NCBI RefSeq assembly: GCF_002854065.1
Contig: NZ_CP024147.1
Length of the DNA stretch: 64,000 nt
Direction: 5' to 3' (one strand)
Origin: Escherichia coli
GTDB lineage: Bacteria > Pseudomonadota > Gammaproteobacteria > Enterobacterales > Enterobacteriaceae
The notes under the pieces were generated by a model. The model was not told where the DNA came from. It made no database searches and saw only the letters and a list, made by a program, of their open reading frames with translations. Positions 21,421-21,704 of this stretch are shown in pieces (within the stretch, counting starts at the first letter, position 1; each line of letters begins with the position of its first letter). The position numbers were made by a program, and so were the translations under genes.

Positions 21421-21704
21421 GGGCAAATCCAAATATCTTATAGAATCTGACTATGAAACTATTCGTATTAGCTCCGATAAGTTTGATGATGAAAACAGAA
21501 CTGGCGACAACAAGTAGCAGCCTTTCTGATGAATTGACCCCAACTTAATATTGTCAACTATCTTCACAGAATCTCCACAATCTCTTCATTATCAGAATAT
21601 GCACCATGAATAAGATAAAAATACTTTCCATTACTTTGGAGAAACGTATAATCAGCAAAAATGAGAACGATCATTCTCACTAAGTGATAGGCCAGGAGAC
21701 AGAA

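Follow-up and report, generated by a model that had tools for sequence, protein, structure and literature searches.

A 31-codon open reading frame between IS2 and eefR in Escherichia coli: very probably a chance frame beside a conserved EefR operator

The closest described counterpart of the locus treated here is eefRABCD, an accessory operon reported at the fabI-sapF site of Escherichia coli (PMC12817139, Microb Genom 2026, available sections). According to the available sections of a second paper (PMC12482432, Virulence 2025), the EefR protein binds the sequence TGAGAACGATCATTCTCA, as found by gel shift with deletion and point mutants, represses eefRABCD, its own gene included, and is encoded by a gene cotranscribed with eefABCD. 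The stretch of DNA analysed here, termed the window, consists of 64,000 nucleotides of E. coli contig NZ_CP024147.1 (assembly GCF_002854065.1). It agrees with the published system, as far as those sections describe it, in having the same fabI-sapF locus, an identical operator and a TetR-family eefR of the self-repressing type cotranscribed with eefABCD; it differs from the published eefR promoter region in that an IS2 element lies within the 316-bp promoter fragment of PMC12482432. A first-pass annotation, made from the sequence alone, had drawn attention to an unannotated 31-codon open reading frame (ORF) between IS2 and a TetR gene. The ORF listing confirms this frame (MKLFVLAPISLMMKTELATTSSSLSDELTPT) at positions 21453..21548 of the plus strand, with an ATG at 21453 and a TAA at 21546-21548. 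The ORF is very probably a chance open frame in a fast-evolving, AT-rich spacer between the divergent fabI and eefR promoters. It does not count as a genuine feature, and the regulation exerted from the spacer around it is already known.

The TetR gene in question is eefR, the repressor gene of EefABC, which is the seventh E. coli RND efflux pump and occurs in the phylogroups most frequently linked to infection. A small ORF next to an RND efflux system invites comparison with AcrZ, the 49-amino-acid membrane-bound partner of the RND pump AcrB. AcrZ is translated and widely conserved, spans the membrane with a full transmembrane helix and is co-regulated from its own promoter. The 31-codon ORF resembles it in being a small frame tied to an RND efflux system and in having a hydrophobic N-terminus. 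It is unlike AcrZ in that the hydrophobic stretch, read from the sequence, comprises about 13 residues, which is too short for a membrane helix, and in lacking a Shine-Dalgarno sequence, a promoter, a stable start codon and homologues. The 316-bp eefR promoter fragment of PMC12482432 includes the ORF, of which the available sections of PMC12482432 and PMC12817139 make no mention. A closer likeness is to the spurious intergenic ORFs of permissive annotation pipelines, from which no difference was found: the frame was annotated once, is of chance length and is ignored by the Prokaryotic Genome Annotation Pipeline (PGAP), which has no annotation at this position in any genome inspected. Dropping the ORF as a gene candidate avoids a false small-protein annotation; as a gene it matters little.

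The length of the frame is what chance would supply. When the 273 bp between IS2 and eefR (GC content 35%) are shuffled 5000 times with dinucleotides preserved, an ATG-initiated ORF of at least 31 codons is present on the plus strand in 27% of cases and on either strand in 48%. For the 477-bp spacer of the IS-free locus, the same test gives 55% on the plus strand and 81% on either strand. In the real spacer, too, the other frames contain several ORFs, 32-56 codons in length. The ATG of the 31-codon frame begins 21 bases past the end of IS2 and 16 past the duplicated AATAT target sequence.

Signals for expression of the ORF are missing as well. Pairing with the anti-Shine-Dalgarno sequence in the 20 nt before the ATG amounts to 0 kcal/mol, compared with -6.0 to -7.4 kcal/mol for fabI, eefR, eefA and IS2 orfA, so that no ribosome-binding signal was found at the start of the ORF. 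In promoter scans of both the IS-free spacer and the window, the plus strand upstream of the ORF has no sigma-70-like site, and both plus-strand promoter candidates are situated 3′ of the ORF stop. Published reporter data are in keeping with this. According to the available text of PMC12482432, EefR represses the 316-bp eefR-upstream fragment to background, and the primer puts the upstream end of that fragment at about window position 20055, so the ORF is included; repression to background argues against an additional constitutive promoter reading through the ORF region. With respect to translation, E. coli O157:H7 Sakai carries an identical ORF at 1852107. Hücker et al. (PMC5597208) list 465 intergenic ORFs of 30 or more amino acids as translated under three growth conditions; the Sakai ORF is missing from this list, which has nothing within 1,851,900-1,852,399. 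The supplements of that paper were searched by peptide, by DNA, by fabI and by the coordinate prefixes 18519-18523, with the format checked against entries such as XECs184 at 1842478. In all likelihood the ORF is not translated and has no transcript from a dedicated promoter.

Comparison of related sequences points in the same direction. In an alignment of Escherichia spacers with 420-bp flanks, the ORF is the least conserved part of the spacer, and identity jumps to 95-100% right past its stop. Among 11 sampled E. coli sequences, nine of the 96 ORF positions are polymorphic, the start codon included. The start is ATG in the window, in O157:H7 and in a few others, and TTG in all seven sampled variant haplotypes; an exact 44-mer around the ATG is kept in 962 of the 2042 eef-positive complete E. 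coli genomes (~47%) and is not found in the other 1080. As the corresponding position is TTA in Escherichia whittamii and TTG in Escherichia sp. MOD1-EC7003, the ATG is probably the derived state. Also missing from all E. coli is a mid-ORF segment of 48 bp in E. whittamii and Escherichia albertii and of 42 bp net in MOD1-EC7003. The 48-bp segment is absent from all 2040 eef-positive complete E. coli genomes that match the E. whittamii spacer, and its loss (seen when loci L005, L006 and L007 at about 2745-2795 are compared with window 21500/21501) looks like a deletion fixed in E. coli. In E. whittamii, a 2-bp insertion shifts the frame and alters the last eight residues; in E. albertii, identity over the ORF drops to 61% with 53 gap columns. 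E. coli SCPM-O-B-8794 (L004) has a strongly divergent, unrelated-looking spacer (2670-3000) in which the ORF is missing. As a separate observation, the L004 eefR product is 98% identical at the protein level, and what can be recognised in its spacer is limited to the -10 hexamer, the operator and some short motifs. Substitutions in the ORF fall on codon positions 1, 2 and 3 in the ratio 14/7/14 (chi-square p = 0.25), and pairwise ratios of nonsynonymous to synonymous substitution (dN/dS) range from 0.16 to 1.5 on 4-15 changes. A pattern of purifying selection together with a kept reading frame was thus not found among the relatives.

Several observations weigh against a chance origin. Some of the dN/dS values are below 1 (0.16-0.46), with others at 0.68 and 1.5, all on tiny counts of 4 to 15 changes. 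Codon position 2 holds none of the nine polymorphic ORF sites within E. coli. The frame is open in 11 of 11 sampled E. coli. It also runs on without a stop through the 48-bp segment of E. whittamii and through the extra 42 bp of MOD1-EC7003, where it has 45 codons and begins with TTG. The peptide has one GenBank record, CDU35901.1/CDP68710.1, a one-member cluster described as 'Protein of unknown function'. In addition, the ribosome profiling of PMC5597208 covers three growth conditions only, under which repression may have kept the eef region silent, and read-through from IS2 could transcribe the ORF in this window.

One alternative is a real small protein restricted to Escherichia. It would have arisen de novo in recent times, or else descend from an ancestral version of about 45 residues that lost part of its length in E. 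coli. By analogy, such a protein might act on the Eef pump as AcrZ acts on AcrB. In its favour, the frame is open in E. coli, over most of its length in E. whittamii and in MOD1-EC7003, where the 42-bp difference is in frame; further points are the lower dN/dS values of 0.16-0.46, the hydrophobic N-terminus and the position adjoining an RND efflux operon. This alternative is nonetheless improbable. Neither a Shine-Dalgarno sequence nor a promoter was found, the start codon differs between lineages (ATG, TTG or TTA), the frame is shifted by 2 bp in E. whittamii, scrambled in E. albertii and missing from the L004 allele, and all E. coli have lost sixteen codons from its centre. The 14/7/14 distribution of substitutions, a hydrophobic stretch of about 13 residues that falls short of a membrane helix, and the absence of the frame from the Sakai list of translated ORFs likewise speak against it.

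Homologues of such a protein were not found either. Tblastn with three orthologous forms of the peptide gave no match in 43 non-Escherichia eefR loci, so the TBLASTN comparison put forward in the first-pass annotation returned nothing in these loci. Pfam and NCBIfam contain no family for the peptide, and a word-index protein search with the 45-amino-acid orthologous form was without a match. Phmmer against 1.84 billion protein representatives detected the peptide itself and one other protein only. The latter (P0017, E = 1e-11) is an 11-fold tandem-repeat protein whose score is summed from 11 weak matches, and it was rejected as spurious.

A narrower proposal, and a still less probable one, is that a T-to-A change of the ancestral TTG or TTA gave rise to a young, possibly de novo 31-residue peptide in about half of the eef-positive E. 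coli. Such a peptide would perhaps be translated whenever transcripts cover the region, as in the case of read-through out of IS2, and would perhaps modulate the Eef pump.

It is just as doubtful that a gene once present between fabI and eefR decayed and left the ORF behind, a possibility also raised in the first-pass annotation. The region is variable and rich in insertions and deletions, as would be expected of decaying sequence, and it is positioned at the edge of an accessory segment. On the other hand, six-frame translation of the spacers from four Escherichia species gave no match, whether to K-12 or to the 3-kb flanks of the 43 non-Escherichia eefR loci, and the peptide has no homologue among the 1.84 billion representatives. 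The comparison of the fabI-sapF region that had been suggested as a check was equally negative, with no homology to the ORF in the K-12 region: in the fabI-ycjD-sapF segment of K-12, shared sequence is limited to the 150 bp directly upstream of fabI. The homology stops near window position 20041 (L001 7042), and because it ends there the 31-codon ORF lies within eef-specific sequence.

That the ORF could be a leader peptide or upstream ORF, controlling eefR-eefABCD by attenuation or translational coupling, is suggested by its location upstream of eefR on the same strand. The layout of the spacer leaves next to no room for this. The ORF ends at 21548, ahead of both the promoter-like site of eefR (21625-21652) and the operator (21662-21679); with the promoter downstream of the stop, the eefR transcript cannot contain the ORF, which is therefore not an eefR leader peptide. 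The distance from the ORF stop to the eefR ATG is 156 nt, no terminator-like hairpin is present between 21548 and 21705, a Shine-Dalgarno sequence is lacking, RNA structure is not in excess (z = -1.06), and the ORF has no counterpart in the 43 non-Escherichia loci, where promoter and operator are retained. Of the three readings offered in the first-pass annotation, chance is thus the one that stands; the gene remnant finds no support and the leader peptide is contradicted by the arrangement of signals.

A small regulatory RNA in place of a protein-coding sequence, which the intergenic position and some sequence conservation within Escherichia might suggest, can be set aside as exceedingly improbable, since Rfam gives only noise at E-values up to 10 and none of it in the ORF interval, folding energies are no better than those of shuffles on both strands (z = -1.06 and -0.85), no promoter/terminator pair brackets the interval, and the interval is the least conserved part of the spacer.

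With the ORF taken as a chance frame, it would be spacer sequence that happens to be open and would have no role in eef regulation. The functional signals are found further downstream. The eefR promoter-like site (21625..21652, plus strand) consists of a -35 hexamer TTTCCA (21625-21630), a 16-nt spacer and a -10 hexamer TATAAT (21647-21652), with 10 of 12 matches in the promoter scan. It is followed by the EefR operator TGAGAACGATCATTCTCA, an 18-bp palindrome at 21662..21679 that has one match in the window. A TATAAT-like hexamer is found directly 5′ of the operator in 27 of 43 orthologous loci. At least 15 of the 18 operator bases are present in 41 of 47 orthologous loci, always directly 3′ of the -10 hexamer and about 20-30 bp before the start codon. 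The operator is kept across about 15 enterobacterial genera, among them Escherichia, Kosakonia, Kluyvera, Enterobacter, Lelliottia, Leclercia, Phytobacter and Pantoea. It was first derived from conservation alone, and the published binding site, then found, is exactly the same sequence; in the available sections of PMC12482432 it is backed by gel shift.

The first-pass annotation had proposed an autoregulatory operator just upstream of the TetR start, in the form of the short palindrome TCACT-A-AGTGA. The palindrome is present exactly at 21677..21687, as read from the sequence, where it has three bases in common with the right edge of the operator. It is palindromic in only one of 43 orthologous loci and is polymorphic within E. 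coli, most haplotypes displaying TCACCAAGTGA. The idea of autoregulation was therefore sound, but the element was not the right one, the true site being the adjacent 18-bp sequence at 21662-21679.

The operator starts 9 nt past the -10 hexamer, and from this spacing it should cover the region just past the transcription start. Counted by position from an inferred exact eefR start, it would extend over roughly +2 to +20. EefR bound there would block initiation or promoter escape, and transcription of both its own gene and eefABCD would be shut down.

A 22-bp form of the operator, TGAGAATGAACGTTCATTCTCA, is found in eefR orthologues of Erwinia, Pantoea, Lonsdalea and Brenneria. In this form the outer arms TGAGAA and TTCTCA are 4 bp wider apart than in the published TGAGAA-N6-TTCTCA. 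It is located at 2906-2927 in locus L038 and at 2856-2877 in L046, and is also found in L028, L031, L032, L045 and L049. To the published operator the present analysis adds conservation across about 15 genera and the 4-bp-wider variant in Erwinia, Pantoea and Lonsdalea.

Between the ORF stop and the eefR -35 hexamer there is a 76-bp block (21549..21624) that is conserved across the genus Escherichia. In the alignment it shows 95-100% identity with 0-1 gap columns in E. whittamii, MOD1-EC7003 and E. albertii, compared with 90-95% for the eefR coding sequence. The block contains an imperfect direct repeat, CAGAATCTCCACAAT (21567-21581) and CAGAATATGCACCAT (21593-21607), and it is not detectable outside Escherichia. 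The block is probably regulatory, and it may be the binding site of a second regulator. It is a more promising lead than the ORF for a second input into eef regulation. A marbox-like site within the block was considered in a by-eye look only; the fit is poor and no claim is made for it.

The IS2 element to the left of the ORF occupies 20101..21431 of the plus strand, with its transposase genes pointing to eefR. It is 1331 bp in length and is 100% identical over these 1331 bp to copies annotated as 'IS3-like element IS2'. A 5-bp target duplication, AATAT, is present on both sides (20096-20100 and 21432-21436), and excision of IS2 together with one AATAT from the window restores exactly the 477-bp fabI-TetR spacer of the IS-free E. 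coli locus L001. The size of the element, the duplication on both sides and the exact excision place it as IS2 of the IS3 family. The junction is found in none of 5426 complete E. coli genomes, the insertion thus being private to the genome of the window. Within the 316-bp eefR promoter fragment of PMC12482432, IS2 sits 193 bp upstream of the -35 hexamer. The promoter scan of the window detected no promoter formed at its right end, and the eefR promoter presumably still works with IS2 present.

The eefR gene (21705..22271, plus strand) encodes a TetR-family repressor of 188 amino acids and takes its name from the Sakai annotation. Residues 16-62 match the Pfam TetR_N domain, the N-terminal helix-turn-helix domain, at 57.5 bits versus a cut-off of 24. 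A Shine-Dalgarno sequence, AGGAGA, is present at 21694-21699, with a pairing energy of -7.4 kcal/mol. eefR is the first gene of the accessory operon eefRABCD between fabI and sapF, whose genes encode in order a TetR repressor, an RND adaptor, an RND pump, an outer-membrane factor and an MFS pump. The reading frames of eefA (22420-23541), eefB (23541-26648), eefC (26652-28025) and eefD (28034-29197) are intact on the plus strand of the window; their names follow the Sakai annotation and the available sections of PMC12817139. Of 5426 complete E. coli genomes, 2042 carry the eef operon, and in K-12 its place between fabI and sapF is occupied by ycjD.

A terminator-like hairpin, GGGGGATATTAATCCCCC, followed by a T-rich tail, is located at 22292-22309, directly 3′ of the eefR stop. 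A further palindrome, TCCTCATTAATTTTAATGAGGA, is found at 22372-22393, directly 5′ of eefA. Despite the hairpin after eefR, the operon is reported to be cotranscribed, and sequences upstream of eefA are reported to be necessary for pump function, according to the available sections of the published work on eefRABCD.

To the left of the spacer is the core gene fabI (19103..19891, minus strand), identified as an ORF and annotated as fabI in identical IS-free loci. Its promoter-like site, TAGCCA-17-TATAAT, is at 19979..20007 on the minus strand, as converted from the promoter scan of L001 (7008..6980), and lies left of the end of K-12 homology at ~20041. Exactly at this end, the left junction of the eef segment, there is an inverted repeat, TCTGTACCGGAG and CTGCGGTACAGA, at 20019-20047. 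A different rearrangement is found in E. coli 23CRST031 (L059 1501-2437), where eefR with its promoter, eefA and the 5′ portion of eefB were lost to an IS1 copy with an adjacent deletion. This strain, which retains the ORF region, represents an example of eef decay within E. coli.
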